A DNA stretch of 17,445 nt from Promethearchaeota archaeon (GCA_048939245.1 JBHLPR010000048.1:1-17445), one strand, 5' to 3'; counted from the first letter of the stretch, positions 1,937-17,445 are shown. Translations and numbers: made by a program. Notes: generated by a model not told the origin, from the letters alone.

Positions 1937-2587
1937 TTAATAGCCGGTGGTCATGGAGGTACCCAAGAATTTCTGGATAACCATATTCATGGTAAAGCTA
2001 CAGATGATGTACCAATAAATGTAGAAGAGACCCATTCCACCTAAAGGTACACCGGGATAATATAGTCCAGTAGTAATCCATTGACCATACTGCCATCCAA
2101 ACCCCAGACCAAAACTACCTAAAATTTGTGCAAAGTTGACCGGGGACCAGATAACCGGGGCTGGAACTGGATCCGGAGGAAACGCAACACCCGGGTCAAT
2201 AAAAACACCATTCATAGTCGTATAAACTAGAATGAAAGGAATAATGGTAATCATCATGGGAAGAAAGGACTGCTTACTCACATCCCCTTGCAGTTTCACG
2301 ATGTATCGTTCACGGCGTTTAATTTTTAGTTCCAGTTTTCGTTTGGCTTTTGGATTGGTTTCCTCTCTGACCTTTTTTTTCATTTCATTGTATTTGTTAA
2401 TTTCTTCACGGGAGCGTTTCAGCCGATCGTAATCAATGAAATGTCGATTCACTAGGTTTGAGATCAAAGAGATAATAATACTAATTATCATCACAACGAT
2501 TGCGGACAAAGGGGGAAACGCCCACGGTCCTAGTGCCGCTCGAATGGCTACGGCAATATCAACAAGAATATTCTGCACGGTTATCAC
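1937..2587 (-). CDS. DUF106 membrane protein (Oxa1 superfamily, EMC3/TMCO1-like insertase)
   Basis: TM1, a basic coiled coil, TM2 (SFLPMMITIIPFILV) and a C-terminal FYIYWYIICSF motif; sits directly after adk with a GTGA overlap. Confidence 0.88.
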   Translation of the reverse strand: MITVQNILVDIAVAIRAALGPWAFPPLSAIVVMIISIIISLISNLVNRHFIDYDRLKRSREEINKYNEMKKKVREETNPKAKRKLELKIKRRERYIVKLQGDVSKQSFLPMMITIIPFILVYTTMNGVFIDPGVAFPPDPVPAPVIWSPVNFAQILGSFGLGFGWQYGQWITTGLYYPGVPLGGMGLFYIYWYIICSFTMNMVIQKFLGTSMTTGY

Positions 2588-3171
2588 ACTTTCAACAGTA
2601 ACTTAGCAAAGGCAGTTGCGGCTTCCTCTGCTTTACCCTCTACATTCTTAAGAATCAGTACGGTTGCACCGGTTAGTGTCCCCACCGCCACTGCTGCTGA
2701 GCGACAGAGCAATTGATGGGCAGCAATATTATCCACTAATTGTTCATCCCGTGTCCGTGTCGGATCTTTTGCCCGTCGAGAAGCAATATTGGCAGGATCC
2801 GCTTCCACCAAGACAATTGAGGCTGGGCGAATCGCTTCTGCTACCCACTTCGGAAGGCCAATTAAAAAGCCTCCATCCGCGGTTTGAATCAATGTATGCG
2901 TGTCTACGATAACGACTTGCGTTTTACTCATTGCTGCGATACGTTCACCTGCCAGCTTCTGTACTTCGCGTTGCTTTTTAACGGGAAGCCGGCGGAGCTC
3001 GTCACGATTCTCTACAAGCCGTTTCTTTTGGGCGATTTCAAACATCACTGAACCATAGGTAATCAATGACACGTTGAGACGATCTTCAACCATACGAATT
3101 GCATCTGTCACCACCGTGGTTTTTCCGACACCAGGGACACCACTGACCACAACGACCTTACGCACTTGCAA
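2584..3171 (-). CDS. adk: Adenylate kinase (archaeal type)
   Basis: VVVSGVPGVGKTTV, YGSVMFE, RDELRRL, IVDTH, GLP, RRAKDPTRTRD. Start moved to TTG at 3171 behind GGAGGT; GTG at 3165 is an alternative. Confidence 0.95.
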   Translation of the reverse strand: MQVRKVVVVSGVPGVGKTTVVTDAIRMVEDRLNVSLITYGSVMFEIAQKKRLVENRDELRRLPVKKQREVQKLAGERIAAMSKTQVVIVDTHTLIQTADGGFLIGLPKWVAEAIRPASIVLVEADPANIASRRAKDPTRTRDEQLVDNIAAHQLLCRSAAVAVGTLTGATVLILKNVEGKAEEAATAFAKLLLKV

Positions 3172-3262
3172 TGGGTTAACCTCCACTGAAATACTGGCAC
3201 AGTTCACTGTCTTAACCTTAAGAGCTTTTCGAGCGCACAATCGAAAGCCTAATGTCCACAGG

Positions 3263-4813
3263 TTATTCGACACCCAACAGGCCACGCATCATCGGATGCA
3301 TCTCACCTAACTGCTCCTTCGCTAAGATCTCGAAATACTGCCGCATAATGCCGACGGATAGTAATATCCCTATGCCGGTGGTGAGGGCGCCGAGAAAGTC
3401 AGCGAAGGCGGCGAGGGCGCCGACAATGATTCCACCGAGGATGGCCACGGTGGGGATGTAGCGGTTGAGGATTTTTTCGATAACTTGGGGTGATCGGCGG
3501 AAGCCGGGGACTTGCATGCCAGCGCCGATGAGTTGTCGGGAGACGTCACGGGGTGAGATACCGGAGACATCGATCCAAAGGCGAGCGAAGGCAGCACAGA
3601 AGACCATGAGGAGTACAGCATAACCGATGGCTCTGACCCAGCCTATGGGAGCTCCCCCAGGGAGTGTCTCGAATAAGGAAAGGATGCCGATGGGGGGAGT
3701 GAGGAACCAGACGAAGGTGAGTGGTTCGGGGACAAGATAGTTGCCTCCACCTTCAGGAACGGCATATCGGGCGAAGATACCAAACCAGAAGTTACCTTGG
3801 AGGGCAGGAAGTTGTACCCAGAGGATTTGGGTAATGAAAAGAATATTCGCATAGAGGGCTTGGGTGAAGATTACCGGGATGTTCGAGACATAGAGAAGTT
3901 TAATGGGGTACTGTCCCCGGAAGCCACGGTAGCGGGCATATTGGAGAGGAATATTGACACGGTAGGATTCCATGAAGATAACGAGGACGAAGGTCATGAA
4001 TGTGGTAAAGAGTCCGAGCATGCTGGCTCTGGGATTTTGTGGTCTAAACCAGATGGTCACGGGGTCGGCGATGAAGCCTGTTTCATCCAGTGGATTGTAG
4101 ATTACACTTGGATCCCAGCCGTTAGCAGACCAACCACCTAGGTTTTGTAAGATAAAGGGGACGATGCCTTGATAGCCAATGGGAGCAGTGGGAATATCTC
4201 TGGTTTGGGCAAAAGAGATGGAGAACATGCCCCAGAGGATTTGGGTGCAGACGTTGGCCATGATAAAGAGGCTGACCCCGCTACCTAGACCCCACCCTTT
4301 CTGGATGGTTTCATCCATCATAATTACTACAATGCCTGCAAACATGAGTTGAATGAAGACGAGGATTGCGCCACCGTAGTCGAGCTGACTGGGAACCTGT
4401 CCGTAAGCACCGGCAAAGATGTAAGCGAAGGCTTGAAAGGCTGTCATAAATACAGCGAGAACCTTCTGGGCACCCGTATAGAGCGAACGCTGATAGGGAT
4501 CAGACATATCGACGCGGATGAGTTGGGAGCCGACGAGGAGCTGCATGATGAGGCCGGCAGTGACGATTGGGCCGATGCCGAGTTCCATGAGAGTGCCCCG
4601 TGAGGAGGCGAGGATGGTGCGGAGCCAGAAGAAGTAGTCAAAGCCTAAGTCTTGGTTAATGCCATAGAGGGGCAGGCTAGCCATGAGGAGGTACAAAACA
4701 AGGATTACTGCGGTCCAGATGAGTTTTTCACGGAAAGAGACCTTGCGGTCGGGTGCCTTGACCTCTGGCATGACGCGAATTATTGGACGTAGTGCGTTGA
4801 GAAACCGACTCAT
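3263..4813 (-). CDS. secY: Preprotein translocase subunit SecY/Sec61-alpha
   Basis: EKLIWT...LPLYG, GTLMELGIGPIVTAGLIMQLL, KGWGLGSGVSLFI, YPIKLLYVSNIP, GIGILLSV; follows rpl15. Confidence 0.98.
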   Translation of the reverse strand: MSRFLNALRPIIRVMPEVKAPDRKVSFREKLIWTAVILVLYLLMASLPLYGINQDLGFDYFFWLRTILASSRGTLMELGIGPIVTAGLIMQLLVGSQLIRVDMSDPYQRSLYTGAQKVLAVFMTAFQAFAYIFAGAYGQVPSQLDYGGAILVFIQLMFAGIVVIMMDETIQKGWGLGSGVSLFIMANVCTQILWGMFSISFAQTRDIPTAPIGYQGIVPFILQNLGGWSANGWDPSVIYNPLDETGFIADPVTIWFRPQNPRASMLGLFTTFMTFVLVIFMESYRVNIPLQYARYRGFRGQYPIKLLYVSNIPVIFTQALYANILFITQILWVQLPALQGNFWFGIFARYAVPEGGGNYLVPEPLTFVWFLTPPIGILSLFETLPGGAPIGWVRAIGYAVLLMVFCAAFARLWIDVSGISPRDVSRQLIGAGMQVPGFRRSPQVIEKILNRYIPTVAILGGIIVGALAAFADFLGALTTGIGILLSVGIMRQYFEILAKEQLGEMHPMMRGLLGVE

Positions 4814-4901: not shown

Positions 4902-5570
4902 TCAGGTCTTTGCTTTTCCTTTTGTAGCTGTCGCTCGTTTCGGTTTTTTCTTTGCCTTCGATGCAGTTTTTTTCTTCGTAGTGGTCTTTTTCTTTGTAAC
5001 CTTTTTCGTGGGTTTAGCTTTGGCAGATGTTTTTCGTTTCGTTTTCGTTTTAGGAGCCCGTTTTGGTTTGCTTTTAGGAGCAGCTTTGGGTGCCTCTTTC
5101 AATGAAGGCGCAAGGTGTTTGGTTGGCTCCTGAACCGTGCCTTTAATTTTTCCTCCAGCCGCTTTAATTTTCTCCGCAGCGCGGTGGGTGAAAAGGGGAG
5201 CTGAAATTGTGATGGGCACGGAAATCTGTCCTGTCCCGAGCACCTTATCATAACCATGTGCAGCTAAATCAATCGTGAGCGGTGTGCCCTTTGCAGGAGC
5301 TTGACCCTCTGTAAATCGTGGAAGGTTCCGTGCGATGTCACCTACATTAATTGTGGCATGGTCTTGCCGGAGTTTGCTATGGCGATGAAACCCGTGTTTT
5401 CCGAACCGCTCGGGATCGTGAGCCGTGACATAGGTCCAATCATGTTTTTTGCCACCGGTTTTACCTTTACCCCCGCGTTGACCACCTTTGCGGTGTTGAC
5501 CAATTCGGCCATACCCGTGGGTACGACCGCCGCGCAGGCGACGAACCCGTTTATCTTTGCGTACTGACAT
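4902..5570 (-). CDS. rpl15: 50S ribosomal protein L15 (uL15) with a Lys/Ala/Thr-rich C-terminal tail of about 80 aa
   Basis: RRLRGGRTHGYG..HRKGGQRGGKG, FGKHGF, INVG, GYDKVLGTG, AAEKIKAAGG. Start probably ATG at 5570 (5576 also possible). Confidence 0.95.
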   Translation of the reverse strand: MSVRKDKRVRRLRGGRTHGYGRIGQHRKGGQRGGKGKTGGKKHDWTYVTAHDPERFGKHGFHRHSKLRQDHATINVGDIARNLPRFTEGQAPAKGTPLTIDLAAHGYDKVLGTGQISVPITISAPLFTHRAAEKIKAAGGKIKGTVQEPTKHLAPSLKEAPKAAPKSKPKRAPKTKTKRKTSAKAKPTKKVTKKKTTTKKKTASKAKKKPKRATATKGKAKT

Positions 5571-13112: not shown

Positions 13113-14309
13113 TCACTTCTTCGAAGACTTCGTAGATTTCGAAGTCTTCTCTTTCGAATCCTTGGTCTTCTTGTCCTTTTTTGGAGCCTTTGTCGTTTTG
13201 GCTTTCTTTGTAGTCTTGGCTTTGGGTTTCTCTGCCGCCTTCTTCTCTTTCGCCTTGGGCTTAGCCTCAGCTTTTTCTTTCTTCGCCTTTTTCTTGGGTT
13301 CCGCTTTTGGTTTGGCTTTAGGTTCAGCTTTCGCTTTTTTCGCCTTGGGTTTCTCTGCCGCCTTCTTCTCTTTCGCCTTGGGCTTGGTTTTTTCCTTCTT
13401 TGCCTTGGGTTCAGCTTTCAGTTTTTCGGGTTCTTTTTTCTTGGGCGGTTTCGTTTCAGGTTCCTTCTTGGGTTCCGCCTTCGGCTCCTTCGGAGCTGGT
13501 GTTTCTTCAGGTGCAGGAACCGCTTCGGGTACTGGCTCAGAGGGTGTTTCTGGTGCTTCTTCCGGAGGTTTCGGTACTTCTGGTTCAGCTGGTTCGGTCC
13601 CTTCATCCATGAACTCTTCTATCGAGGGAGCTTCTTCGATGGGTAGTTCTTCTTCGACCACTTCAATTTCCTCACCTTCGGGTGCGGGTGCAGGAACCGC
13701 TTGCACCTCAACTTCTTTGTGAACAATCACAGGATGATCCGGTGCCACAGCATCTGGTAACATGATACGGACTTGGACGCCTAACACGCCGGGTTTCATC
13801 ACCGCAAAAGCCCACCCATGACTCACGGCGCTACGAATTGGTTCACCGGTCTTAGCCACGAAGCCACTGCGGAATTTTTGATACCGAGCACGGCGACTAG
13901 TAAGTTTACCAGCGATGGAGATTTCCACGCCCTTTGCCCCAGCCCCAATGATTCGGCGAAGGACCCCATAGGCGGCACGGCGAAAGTGGTCACCACGTTC
14001 GAGCCGTTGGGCTAAGCGTTCGGCCATAATGGGACCGTTCAGTTCGGGTACTTCGACTTCATTCACTTCAATTTGGGGTGCTTCCAACCCGAAATCCTGT
14101 TCTAAGGTTTCGGTTAACGCGCGCACGGTGGTGCCCCGGCGACCAATAACCATACCGGGACGTGCCGCATAGACAACAACCCGCATCCCCAACGGGGTTT
14201 TTTGGAGGTCGACACCAGCATAACCTGCACGGCGAAGCTCCTGGCGTAAAAAGTCATTCACTTTGACTTTCAGTAATCCGCGATTGATGAAATGATCTTC
14301 TGCTGGCAT
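13113..14309 (-). CDS. rps3: 30S ribosomal protein S3 (uS3) with an acidic-then-basic low-complexity C-terminal tail of about 200 aa
   Basis: AGYAGV, RPGMVIGRRG (KH domain), LERGDHFRRA, GAKGVEISIAGKL, KPGVLGVQVRIM. Confidence 0.98.
   Translation of the reverse strand: MPAEDHFINRGLLKVKVNDFLRQELRRAGYAGVDLQKTPLGMRVVVYAARPGMVIGRRGTTVRALTETLEQDFGLEAPQIEVNEVEVPELNGPIMAERLAQRLERGDHFRRAAYGVLRRIIGAGAKGVEISIAGKLTSRRARYQKFRSGFVAKTGEPIRSAVSHGWAFAVMKPGVLGVQVRIMLPDAVAPDHPVIVHKEVEVQAVPAPAPEGEEIEVVEEELPIEEAPSIEEFMDEGTEPAEPEVPKPPEEAPETPSEPVPEAVPAPEETPAPKEPKAEPKKEPETKPPKKKEPEKLKAEPKAKKEKTKPKAKEKKAAEKPKAKKAKAEPKAKPKAEPKKKAKKEKAEAKPKAKEKKAAEKPKAKTTKKAKTTKAPKKDKKTKDSKEKTSKSTKSSKK
13222..13385. repeat. Perfect 41-bp direct repeat inside the rps3 tail (13222-13262 and 13345-13385)
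   Basis: TTGGGTTTCTCTGCCGCCTTCTTCTCTTTCGCCTTGGGCTT occurs twice, 123 bp apart, and encodes KPKAKEKKAAEKPK on the minus strand. Confidence 0.9.
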
Positions 14310-14311
14310 GT

Positions 14312-14773
14312 TTACTCCTCCGTTAAGACAATCTCAATATGCACCATCTGTTCATTGAATTTCGTCGATGAGCCCCGAGCCCGTTCAATAAAGCGCTTAA
14401 TCAGCCGACCCGGATACGATGAAATGTGCGTAATGCGGAGCCGGTCCAAGTCTAATCCCTTATAATCCGCGTTATTCTCCGCGTTTGCTAACACCCCTAA
14501 AATGACCTTCGAGGCCTTCACGGGGTACCGTCCCGAATCCGCTTTATGCAACCCCTTGCGATGCCCGACCTGCTTATCATAGCGTCGATAGGGCACCGCT
14601 TGGCGCATAGCAATCACCGCTTCAAGATAGGCTTTCGCTGCTTCCAAGCGGAGGCCACGTAATTCGTTACAAATTTCCCGCGCAGCTTTGGGGGAAATCC
14701 GAACCTCGCGTCCGCTCGCCCGAGCCGTCTTGTCGGGATCCAGACCAATGATCGAATAGCCGAAATTGGGCAT
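14312..14773 (-). CDS. rpl22: 50S ribosomal protein L22 (uL22)
   Basis: RISPKAAREIC, VPYRRY, GRYPVKA, NAENNADYKGLD, RARG, HIEIVL. Confidence 0.98.
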   Translation of the reverse strand: MPNFGYSIIGLDPDKTARASGREVRISPKAAREICNELRGLRLEAAKAYLEAVIAMRQAVPYRRYDKQVGHRKGLHKADSGRYPVKASKVILGVLANAENNADYKGLDLDRLRITHISSYPGRLIKRFIERARGSSTKFNEQMVHIEIVLTEE

Positions 14774-14903
14774 AGGGTATCCAACCTAGATGGTTACAAC
14801 ACTCACTTTGCAGGTTGCAGCAGCAAGAACGAGAATCACAGGAACCCTCGGCGCTGGTCCGCACTCCCAAACAACGTGAGAGCGAGGAGAGGGATGCCAT
14901 GTA

Positions 14904-14922
14904 CCCTATATAAGAATTCTGC
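14904..14922 (-). promoter_or_regulatory. Putative TATA-box promoter of the rpl22-led operon
   Basis: TTATATAG at 14913-14906 on the minus strand is the only strong TATA-like element in this intergenic region. It predicts a transcription start near 14884 and a leader of about 110 nt. Confidence 0.6.
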
Positions 14923-14944
14923 TCATCGCGACACCCGACAGCTC

Positions 14945-15079
14945 TTATTCTAAGACAAACGGCTTAGACCCAGTCAAAATTACCTCAGGAAGCACTTCAC
15001 GATGCTTTTGAAGAAACGCCACATCCGCCTTCTTATCCCGCCCCGAATCTGGCAACAACTCCGGAATCGCCTCCACTCG
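14945..15079 (-). pseudogene. Stranded original 3' end (44 codons plus TAA) of the trm112-like gene
   Basis: Translates as RVEAIPELLPDSGRDKKADVAFLQKHREVLPEVILTGSKPFVLE*, with 31/44 aa identical to the C-terminus encoded at 16877-16734. Homology stops abruptly at about 15080, and the 5' two-thirds of the gene is missing here. Confidence 0.92.
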
Positions 15080-16877
15080 GTAAATGCTGGCTTTGTGTGG
15101 TGTTCATAGGGCATTCACGAATAAAACTAATGGTATCCTTGAAACCAATCAATATGTGGAAACCTGAAATAGATGGAAAAGCTGTTTCAGATATTAATCA
15201 ATTGGCATCAATCATAGATCGCGAATATGCTTGCCTAAAGAAATACAAGATTTTTAACCAATTACTTTCCCATGCGAAATGTCATTTAATGCTATATCAG
15301 AAGCTATGTAAGCGACAATCACTCGAAAAAGGTGAAATTTCTCGTCTCGCTCGCGAGTTACATGTAAAAAGATTGTTGGTCTCAGCGTTTATTACAAAGG
15401 CTGGTCGACCACGACTTTACTTCTATATTCAACGATGCATATCTAAAACGAAAATATCCACTATCCTTAGAAACCTTCTAAGGCAAACCAATGGAATTTC
15501 CTCGCTGAGCAGGCTCAAGGAAAGACTTGAAACATATTTTTTTATTGACGCGCTTATTGAAAGCAGAACTTACTCACGTCACATAATCCGGTGTAAGAAA
15601 TATTTCGCAGCTCTTCGGGAACTACAGGAAGGAGGGTGTTACAAAGCTGTTTCAAAAACAGTAAAAGTGGAATATTCGAGAGTAATCTGGTGGCTTAGAG
15701 GACAGAAGCCATACTTAGTCGAGCTAGCAAGTCGAATTCCAAAAAAAGTCCCGAAAAAGGGTTACAGATGGCTACCTACTAAAATGGCCATAAATTCTCA
15801 ACCACTAAAGTTAATCGAAGTTCCTAAACAAGTGATTAAATGGAGTCAAATCTCCGCAGTAATCAAAAAGCTTAGACCATTAAAACCAACAGATAAGGCA
15901 CTGAAGATTTTCGGATCAATTTGCCCCGAGTCAGCTTTTAGCTATATTTTGGGAATCATGGTAAGTGATGCAAGTAAACATAAGGATAGTAAATCGTCTA
16001 TAAGGATCGCACTAGGATTATCTAAGAATTATTCTTGGAGTAAACGTGTTGGTAATGCAACATGCCATTATTTGGGGAGACTAGGTATTCGAGCAAAAAG
16101 GGGTAAAGACACTTCATCAAACAAAGGAGATAAATCTAGGTATTTTTGGTATTCAGAACGATCTCCGCTCATAAAATGGATTAATCAAGCCTGTTTAGGC
16201 TTAAACCCAAAACATAACACAACCAACCAAGCAATCATGGCTAATTGGCTGCTAGATGCACCTAGGTCTATTCAAATCAAGTTCTTACAAGGATTAAATG
16301 ACGGAGACGGTTATGCAAGTGTGAAGGCAAAAGCTCTTGGAAACGCATGTCCACCAAATACATTATTAGTGAAAAAAATCCTGAAGGGTCTTGATATTGA
16401 TTCTAAAGCGTATCCAGACAAACTACTAATTAAAAGAAATCAAAGTATTATCAAGGCTACAAATCTTCCATTCTTTCTTCACGCTACAGAGAGGCAAAAC
16501 AATGCCGAAAAAATTGTGAAAATGATCAAGGTGAGAAAGAAAACAGGGAATACCTTTGATGCGTTAGTACAACAAAAGATTAAGAAGTGGTCAAAAAACG
16601 GTCTTTCAAGTGGAGCAATTTCAGAACGCTTCTTCGATGAAACTGGTAAGTCATTTTCAATAACTCAAATACGATATTATGTTAACAAATTTAGAGAAGA
16701 ATAGTTGAAGAAATACAACTTCGTTACATTGAATTATTCATCCTTTGGTAACGTAAAGGGTTTGGATTCATACAGTATTATTTCAGGAAGAGTATCTTTG
16801 TGTTTCTTTAGAAAGGTTATATCCGCGTTTTTATCTCGACCTGAATCAGGAAGTAATTCGGGAATCGTTTCAACCCG
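15080..16877. mobile_element. Free-standing homing endonuclease cassette carrying a replacement 3' end of its host gene
   Basis: A visibly AT-rich block containing a LAGLIDADG ORF plus a recoded trm112 3' end. It is bounded by the point (GS^RVE) where the two copies of the trm112 tail begin. The right boundary is approximate. Confidence 0.8.
15130..16704 (+). CDS. Double-motif LAGLIDADG homing endonuclease-like protein with a long N-terminal region and a C-terminal HTH-like segment
   Basis: Motif 1 FSYILGIMVSDAS (about 15937-15975) and motif 2 FLQGLNDGDG (16282-16311), about 115 aa apart; very basic; no intein splicing motifs. Start is uncertain (GTG 15097, ATG 15130 or ATG 15154). Confidence 0.85.
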   Translation: MVSLKPINMWKPEIDGKAVSDINQLASIIDREYACLKKYKIFNQLLSHAKCHLMLYQKLCKRQSLEKGEISRLARELHVKRLLVSAFITKAGRPRLYFYIQRCISKTKISTILRNLLRQTNGISSLSRLKERLETYFFIDALIESRTYSRHIIRCKKYFAALRELQEGGCYKAVSKTVKVEYSRVIWWLRGQKPYLVELASRIPKKVPKKGYRWLPTKMAINSQPLKLIEVPKQVIKWSQISAVIKKLRPLKPTDKALKIFGSICPESAFSYILGIMVSDASKHKDSKSSIRIALGLSKNYSWSKRVGNATCHYLGRLGIRAKRGKDTSSNKGDKSRYFWYSERSPLIKWINQACLGLNPKHNTTNQAIMANWLLDAPRSIQIKFLQGLNDGDGYASVKAKALGNACPPNTLLVKKILKGLDIDSKAYPDKLLIKRNQSIIKATNLPFFLHATERQNNAEKIVKMIKVRKKTGNTFDALVQQKIKKWSKNGLSSGAISERFFDETGKSFSITQIRYYVNKFREE

Positions 16878-17240
16878 TGAACCGATTGGATAGAACCGTT
16901 GACATTTTTCGCATCTCAGTGCTCCTACCTGCACCTCTAGCCCGTGGAAGTATTCCACTAGGGGCATCAAATCTTGGGGATTTGGTTTTTTCTTCGAGAG
17001 CGCCGCAAACACTTTTCGCGCCTTGATTAACCGTTGATCAAAGACCTTCTCTTTGGACAGATTGTGCACTGGTTCTAACGATGGCTCACTCAACACGCCC
17101 CGCTGATAATGCATCACCAACTCCGCCGCTAACCCCTTCTTGTCCCGTAACCGATTCCGCTTCACATCCACCACATAGGTCGTCAACGGATGCTCCTTAC
17201 AAATCGGACACGCCAAAATATTCAACAACCACGGCTTCAC
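16734..17240 (-). CDS. Trm112-like methyltransferase activator (zinc-binding, long form, 168 aa)
   Basis: (M)KPWLLNILACPICKEHPL...EVQVGALRCEKCQRFYPI...IPELLPD..RD...FLKKH...KPF. GTG at 17240 behind GAGGTG. Confidence 0.87.
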   Translation of the reverse strand: MKPWLLNILACPICKEHPLTTYVVDVKRNRLRDKKGLAAELVMHYQRGVLSEPSLEPVHNLSKEKVFDQRLIKARKVFAALSKKKPNPQDLMPLVEYFHGLEVQVGALRCEKCQRFYPIGSRVETIPELLPDSGRDKNADITFLKKHKDTLPEIILYESKPFTLPKDE

Positions 17241-17280
17241 CGACAGCACCTCAATACGCAAAGTGTGTACCCAACCTACA

Positions 17281-17302
17281 CTTAATAAAACTGCCTTTTT
17301 TC
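17281..17302 (-). promoter_or_regulatory. Putative BRE/TATA promoter of the trm112-like gene
   Basis: Minus strand AAAAAAGGCAG-TTTTATTAAG, about 40 nt upstream of GTG 17240. A short inverted repeat AAGTGT/ACACTT (17261-17283) lies just downstream. Confidence 0.55.
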
Positions 17303-17370
17303 AGACGCCTTTGGACACTGCTCTCATCAAAAAATGGATATCGACTCTTTAAGGATTTAAGTAGTAGATT

Positions 17371-17445
17371 CTATGACGACTCATGCACTTTCTCAGAGTC
17401 TGCCAAAGTTATTCTCTGGTTACGTCGAATCCAATACACATAAGC
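17371..17445 (-). CDS. Possible 3' end of an upstream gene (partial, product unknown)
   Basis: Open frame AYVYWIRRNQRITLADSEKVHESS* from the window edge, resembling the end of a TM helix followed by a basic tail. Too short to be sure. Confidence 0.3.
   Translation of the reverse strand, partial: AYVYWIRRNQRITLADSEKVHESS

Follow-up and report, generated by a model that had tools for sequence, protein, structure and literature searches.

A LAGLIDADG endonuclease cassette at a replaced trm112 3' end in an Asgard archaeon: a probable case of homing without splicing

Introduction

How might a homing endonuclease gene settle at a conserved cellular gene, outside any intron or intein, and still leave that gene with an in-frame end? 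Homing endonucleases in conserved cellular genes are thought to need an intron or an intein. The question is raised by a 17,445-nucleotide stretch of DNA (hereafter the window) that forms the end of contig C44 in a 2.5-Mb MAG of Hermodarchaeia, Asgard archaea. An original prediction, made from the sequence alone, proposed that the C-terminus of a trm112-like gene exists there twice, once on each side of a LAGLIDADG open reading frame, and that this frame belongs to a mobile element which cuts trm112 and avoids damaging it by supplying its own C-terminal coding sequence.

Here we show that one of the two gene ends is native and the other foreign, that relatives carry empty alleles with a single end, and that duplicated 3' ends beside related endonuclease genes recur at other host genes. 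We then weigh the mechanisms that could have produced this arrangement and compare it with known systems.

Results and discussion

A duplicated gene end surrounds a free-standing endonuclease gene

The right end of the window contains, in order, trm112 (minus strand), a large plus-strand ORF, a 44-codon orphan (minus strand), rpl22 and rps3. Pfam searches assigned the plus-strand ORF to LAGLIDADG_3 (E 9.7e-5) and the minus-strand ORF to Trm112p (E 2e-9). The features of the locus are as follows.

16897..17240, minus strand: native 5' body of trm112, with a GTG start at 17240 (TTG at 17261 possible); Pfam Trm112p, NCBIfam Trm112_arch over aa 99-133, GC3 0.60, about 91% nucleotide identity to the empty allele L112
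16734..16896, minus strand: foreign, element-borne trm112 3' end, in frame and with its own stop, 83/132 nt identical to the empty allele; it comprises about 19 nt before the junction (16896-16878) and a 47-codon duplicated tail (16877-16734)
16705..16733, no strand: AT-rich 29-bp spacer separating the converging stop codons
15130..16704, plus strand: free-standing double-LAGLIDADG endonuclease gene, 524 aa, recognised by Pfam, family alignment, AlphaFold and Foldseek
15937..15972, plus strand: LAGLIDADG motif 1, ending VSDA; the Asp at 15967-15969 is invariant in 22 sequences
16282..16311, plus strand: LAGLIDADG motif 2, FLQGLNDGDG, last Asp at 16306-16308; the Gln, both Asp and the final Gly are invariant in 22 sequences
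15080..15129, plus strand: left end of the element and endonuclease leader; identity to the empty allele sets in abruptly at 15079/15078
15079/15080 (plus or minus 1 nt): junction between element and orphan
14945..15079, minus strand: displaced native trm112 3' end (orphan), 44 codons and a stop, 124/132 nt identical to L112
14904..14920, minus strand: TATA-like motif, conserved upstream of rpl22 and not disrupted by the insertion; a promoter role is presumed
14312..14773, minus strand: rpl22 (Pfam Ribosomal_L22), heading the downstream run of ribosomal protein genes

Read on the minus strand, the tails at 16877-16734 and 15079-14945 are 72% identical over 43 aa (tblastx-style E 2.6e-22), which bears out the predicted duplication around the LAGLIDADG ORF. 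Aligned in register they share 86/135 nt, with 32, 39 and 15 of 45 identical at codon positions 1, 2 and 3, and their local alignment score is 167, against a shuffle maximum of 50; an exact-seed repeat finder caught only a 15-nt piece of the duplication. The orphan lacks a start codon and an upstream frame. Between the trm112 stop and the end of the plus-strand ORF at 16704 lie 29 bp; the endonuclease start was placed at ATG 15130 (524 aa) because homologs begin there. An intein had been excluded by the opposite orientation and this spacing, and the Pfam search agrees: no HINT domain was detected at E<=1.

The product of the translation-related gene trm112 (window 16737-17240) has 168 aa; as in other Asgard homologs, an insert of about 90 aa separates the domain halves and a conserved tail follows. 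The junction falls within the Trm112 domain match, in a conserved motif; the most conserved part of the match is the N-terminal motif. The proposed target is indeed conserved, though not essential in Haloferax: Trm112 is a methyltransferase activator whose loss there leads to small colonies and is not lethal (PMC6144793). Further along the operon, rps3 (window 13113-13722) carries a long C-terminal extension, acidic and then Lys/Ala/Pro-rich, for a total of 398 aa (436 aa in L114).

A native orphan and an imported attached end

Comparison with the closest empty allele (L112, JGI) separates the two tails: the orphan matches it at 124/132 nt (94%), the attached tail at only 83/132 (63%), from which it follows that the orphan is the native end and the attached one is imported, in agreement with the proposal that the element supplies its own trm112 C-terminal end. 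Base composition divides them in the same way, with a GC3 of 0.28 in the attached tail, close to the endonuclease gene (0.31), and of 0.52 in the orphan, close to host genes (0.48-0.60). The trm112 body is about 91% identical to L112 up to 19 nt before the junction and then switches sharply, the first diagnostic mismatch lying at 16896, about 19 nt upstream of the duplicated part. The predicted tail coordinates stand, and the foreign segment begins correspondingly further upstream than had been supposed. Since identity to L112 switches at these points, we place the bounds of the cassette at 15080 and about 16896; it is AT-rich, 1.8 kb long, and adds 1798 bp.

Relative to the empty allele the attached tail has a pS of 0.94 and a pN of 0.18, that is, saturated synonymous sites and few amino-acid changes. 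This is the pattern expected of a long-separated but working gene end, and it indicates purifying selection. We also considered directed recoding for immunity; identical codons numbered 12, with 11.1 expected (3 and 4.1 near the junction), showing no excess recoding, and deliberate recoding is unsupported because the synonymous differences match chance under saturation.

Relatives carry empty alleles and independent data span the junctions

All 13 trm112 loci from other genomes of the family have one tail and no endonuclease, with rpl22 next in 12, and empty alleles also occur at L112-L116. None of the 13 carries both tails without the endonuclease, an outcome that had been named as contrary to the prediction. 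As anticipated, the tail of the empty allele is of the orphan type in most relatives and lies about 170 nt upstream of rpl22, and the TATA-like motif follows the trm112 stop in 11 of 13 aligned empty alleles. Same-genus empty tails are 0.70-0.85 identical to the orphan at the nucleotide level, compared with 0.60-0.69 to the attached copy. The search for a same-species empty allele found none, the closest being 91-95% identical in nucleotides; runs containing 40% of the words, considered as same-species empty alleles, hold pieces of the element instead, and element-skipping contigs came only from a more distant relative. Another locus, P0198, was suspected to be occupied and turned out to be empty. 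Among relatives, the trm112-rpl22 interval of G006 is about 270 nt longer (L009 1060-1500), and in G008 trm112 is not followed by rpl22 (L014 330-1833).

Misassembly had been raised as a possible cause of the arrangement. A second assembly, GCA_016550425.1, covers window positions 14730-17445 at 99.4% identity and spans both junctions, with no difference across 14730-16704, and 15079/80 and 16877 are each bridged by Logan contigs of two studies (runs X1, X2 and X3); the arrangement is thus no misassembly. X2 is the safer independent witness, as X1 could be related to the source sample. Over window positions 14730-16704 there are 0 differences from L063 in 1975 nt, where about 10 would be expected (neighbouring DNA differs by 0.5%), and 12 differences cluster upstream of trm112; the identical stretch hints at recent spread between strains within the species.

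The endonuclease belongs to a patchily distributed family

In 22 homologs of about 520 aa, both LAGLIDADG motifs are kept and D277 and D390 are invariant. The AlphaFold model (pLDDT 91) has a mostly helical, HTH-like N-terminal half, LAGLIDADG helices at 263-275 and 376-390, and three C-terminal HTH-like helices. All 33 Foldseek matches in the PDB at E<=0.001 are LAGLIDADG-fold proteins, among them PI-SceI, I-DmoI, PI-PfuI and WhiA (TM 0.6-0.66 by target for I-DmoI), at modest E-values and only 10-18% identity to characterised LAGLIDADG enzymes. The modelled protein thus shows the marks of a double-motif LAGLIDADG enzyme, namely acidic-ended helices and an alpha/beta core fold. A PDB profile search returned nothing meaningful, including no solved relative for the large helical N-terminal region.

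The family profile gathers 343 representatives at E<=1e-10. Across a sample of 201 genomes of the phylum, the family is present in 12/18 genomes of the host family, in 21/43 of one other family, where members are often longer proteins, and in one further genome; the host genome has five copies. Presence is patchy, with 0-11 matches per genome and varying sites. Pairs of endonucleases have pN/pS values of 0.22 and 0.44, consistent with purifying selection. No relative of the endonuclease was found in viral contigs, and a scan of genome contigs with the single protein gave no match.

Duplicated 3' ends recur at some, not most, other sites

Beyond trm112, a duplicated gene end accompanies a family member at four host genes. 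At ino1 the duplication spans about 19 codons and the endonuclease is co-oriented (G005, G006, G008). The endonuclease is convergent at the gene for a ThrRS editing domain (6-7 codons; G000 C51 and G011), at an Fe-S/CCG gene (15 codons; L091/L092) and at an acyl-CoA dehydrogenase gene (21 codons; L165). Both ThrRS-site orphans are followed by the context found after the stop in empty alleles. The G000 C51 locus (about 5300-5345, L032) is a second family cassette in the same genome, its orphan reading SGRSID and a stop, and G011 C12 (L037) has its own variant of the ThrRS-site orphan.

Of about 13 Hermodarchaeia sites examined, 3 show clear duplication, as do 2 distant loci. With a p floor of 0.01 over about 70 tests, the stop-anchored scan detected no orphan at the response-regulator, TtcA-like, GTPase, GGGR-ending or fae-hps 3' sites, and weak matches at L040, L111 and L178 were counted as chance; a convergent-only, long-match test is blind to ino1 and to the 6-codon ThrRS orphan. 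The expectation that homologs would be flanked by duplicated 3' ends was therefore realised at these four genes but not at most sites tested; given so low a share of clear duplications among the Hermodarchaeia sites, we regard 3'-end replacement as one mode of the family and not its rule.

Two further loci deserve mention. Upstream of fae-hps in G017, beside a co-oriented endonuclease, lies a 32-nt, 81% copy of an internal fae segment (L039/L097, about 575-610 and 2352-3542); the first 60 fae codons have a GC3 of 0.32, compared with 0.47. Tentatively, this locus may represent a 5'-end replacement. In other genomes, different family members adjoin the 3' end of fae-hps (L042, L059). The 3' half of an Arf/Roc-like GTPase gene is 94-99% identical among several species and differs in its last 10 or so codons; many MAG contigs break inside this gene, and several genomes have a convergent family member there (L135-L143, L151, L157, L090; G000 C90/C18). 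Homogenisation driven by homing, with repeated end swaps, could possibly account for this pattern.

Element states at ino1 and trm112 suggest invasion, decay and loss

The ino1 site presents the element in several states. The endonuclease gene is intact in G005 and frameshifted in G006; G008 carries a mini-cassette with both ends and both tails preserved but most of the ORF gone; in the element-less alleles of G001 and G012, a patch of element-type sequence precedes a host-type end (ino1 loci: L064, L065, L067, L069, L070). G005, G006 and G008 share the same right junction and differ in their orphans. Two genomes whose orphans match at 51/63 have attached tails that match at 62/63; in G008 the shared tail (97%) sits on a body about 80% identical to that of G005, and across hosts the attached tails are 97-100% identical. 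Near-identical tails and a single right junction in divergent hosts show that a fixed cassette moved laterally. In G000, contigs C72 and C119 both break at the ino1 site.

The nearest relative of the window's endonuclease, P0002 (56%), also converges on trm112. Its trm112 tail is different but likewise AT-rich (GC3 0.21), and 22 of the 24 nt just before the junction are shared with the window, the best among 15 alleles. The P0160 allele of trm112 joins an attached-type tail (37/43, as against 29/43 to the orphan) to a body whose closest matches are in other species, and 28 bp downstream lies a convergent gene, a candidate element. The contigs of the two other trm112-associated elements, that of P0002 among them, lack the upstream flank and hence the orphan region. 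A quick tree clusters the enzymes according to the gene they adjoin (support 100 for the trm112 pair, 99 for GTPase and 100 for ThrRS editing), and those at GGGR sites form their own clade. Vertical descent of old insertions could partly explain such site clades, which makes ino1 the stronger evidence of spread.

An element-less trm112 allele in G004 is 27-30/30 identical to that of its sister G003, falling to 21, 18 and 21 per 30 nt in a divergent patch that spans about 90 nt around the junction and lies nearer in sequence to the attached copy of the window. It is a candidate scar matching those at ino1. The patches at both genes may reflect loss of the element by recombination between its two tails.

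A probable homing mechanism and its rivals

These observations are probably best explained by a splicing-free homing element that cuts the empty trm112 allele and is copied in during repair together with its own gene end. The LAGLIDADG enzyme would cut at or near the motif where the duplication starts (codons for YPIGS-RVE). Repair templated by an occupied allele would then bring in the endonuclease gene together with the element's version of some 53 terminal codons, beginning about 19 nt upstream of the junction, so that trm112 stays in frame, presumably encoding a working hybrid Trm112, and the native end is stranded beyond the endonuclease gene. An occupied allele should resist re-cutting because its site sequence differs. 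Elements would later decay, and recombination between the tails would leave a short foreign patch. The insertion leaves the rpl22 promoter motif, on the far side of the orphan, unaltered; the ribosomal operon should therefore escape harm, which would account for the tolerance of an antisense insertion at its head. Being antisense to the host gene at trm112 and at three other sites, the endonuclease would need its own transcript; a sigma-70 promoter scan, a model not suited to archaea, performed at chance level.

The same anatomy could also result from a single event without any cutting, if DNA from a distant donor with an endonuclease gene just downstream of its trm112 had been taken up through homologous recombination within trm112 at one end and illegitimate joining at the other. 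Many family members do lie just past a stop codon with no duplication, and the cassette could first have formed in this way. As an account of the locus such passive transfer is unlikely, since it leaves unexplained the one ino1 junction in three host backgrounds, the clades that track insertion sites, and the recurrence at five genes with conserved acidic residues. Integrative elements restore the 3' ends of their target genes, and the two tails might accordingly be attachment-site duplications made by a recombinase acting in trans. We consider this very unlikely: the cassette has no recombinase, its tails are only 64% identical, the absence of relatives from the viral contigs speaks against it, and the foreign sequence begins before the duplication, as in gene conversion.

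The several HTH-like modules, the presence of WhiA among the Foldseek matches and the purifying selection in endonuclease pairs would all suit a domesticated, WhiA-like DNA-binding regulator beside an incidental duplication. WhiA has lost its acidic catalytic residues; here they are invariant, and with the patchy, multi-site, AT-rich occurrence of the family and its frameshifted and deleted copies, they render this idea extremely improbable. Hardly credible, finally, is an assembly chimera, or a bulge-helix-bulge intron whose removal would join the orphan tail to the body. Introns of this type are a known setting for archaeal LAGLIDADG genes (PMC13565253), yet junction pairing is no better than in shuffles (8-23% of which are as good), the ORF runs antisense to trm112, the attached tail is conserved and keeps the frame, and Rfam and tRNA scans of the window gave no match, in keeping with the earlier view that no splice structure removes the insert; a chimera is contradicted by the bridging of the junctions in independent data.

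Relation to known systems and significance

The closest parallel to this probable homing cassette is provided by the mobile ORF elements (mORFs) of fungal mitochondria, described from Allomyces macrogynus atp6, Glomus sp. atp6, atp9, cox2 and nad3, Rhizopus atp9 and Mortierella cox2, with an endonuclease reported as biochemically shown to drive mobility (PMC3630166). In both, an endonuclease ORF lies between a foreign in-frame C-terminus and the displaced native one, with no splicing, and the contrast in identity to relatives is alike: 94% native and 63% foreign for the trm112 cassette, 91-98% and 64-81% for mORFs (PMC3630166). mORFs are mitochondrial and co-transcribed with the host gene, sometimes in phase, whereas the trm112 cassette lies in a cellular archaeal chromosome, with its endonuclease antisense (co-orientation being seen only at ino1); the enzyme is a 520-aa HTH-rich protein, and across the sites the replaced lengths range from 6 to about 50 codons. 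Given these differences in host, orientation and enzyme architecture, the cassette works like an mORF but is not a member of that group.

Intronless homing by free-standing endonucleases such as T4 SegF, SegB and MobE is documented mainly in phages (PMC13565253). The cassette resembles it in having a free-standing gene beside a conserved target, putative immunity via sequence difference, and co-conversion of flanks, and differs in its discrete boundaries and cellular host. Phage intronless-homing enzymes are GIY-YIG or HNH proteins and, to our knowledge, typically come without a duplicated gene end. Among archaea, the Haloferax glycosylation islands contain free-standing LAGLIDADG genes, likewise outside introns and inteins (PMC5867893); they belong to a different Pfam family (PF03161), have flanks without protein-coding similarity and show no gene-end replacement (PMC5867893). 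PI-PfuI, I-DmoI, I-Tsp061I and WhiA share the double-motif core fold, but unlike archaeal intein and intron enzymes the trm112 endonuclease has no splicing domain or intron and has a large helical N-terminal region. We found no description of a gene-end-replacing endonuclease in archaea, within a literature whose subscription papers were incompletely covered, and the design itself only in fungal mitochondria, by an incomplete search.

A wider reading is possible, though we lean slightly against it: that gene-end replacement is the general way of life of an undescribed, actively spreading Asgard family of large HTH-LAGLIDADG enzymes. Each clade would home to the end of one conserved gene, swapping 6-50 codons across species; loss would leave an immune patch, and sites without orphans would be late or short-tail cases. 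If so, these elements would keep rewriting core-gene ends without splicing. The family points to a third route, neither intron nor intein, in an archaeal chromosome, and its empty, occupied, decaying and scarred alleles can be compared, making the invasion-decay-loss cycle testable for an element that does not splice. It further implies that interspecies gene conversion occurs in Asgard archaea and that core-gene ends there may be of foreign origin, a possible source of misleading phylogenies and of breaks in MAG assemblies, and it offers a panel of new putative long-site nucleases whose targets can be read from their junctions.

Further members of the family

Longer members (600-1500 aa) with a repeated N-terminal helical module of 200 aa occur in another Asgard family and in Hermodarchaeia (L163-L182; P0016-P0158). 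In two G000 copies (C18:182-1711 and C117:37-1458) the 5' halves are GC-richer and strongly C/A-skewed and the 3' ends AT-rich, whereas the trm112 copy is uniformly AT-rich. Family members also occur as tail-to-tail pairs 14-19 bp apart (G011 C42 and G004 C125; L048/L056 and L053/L057). At L038 (G004 C144) a member lies between a TtcA-like gene and a 136-nt segment that is 97% identical to G000 C49:5379-5514 and is perhaps a structural RNA gene.
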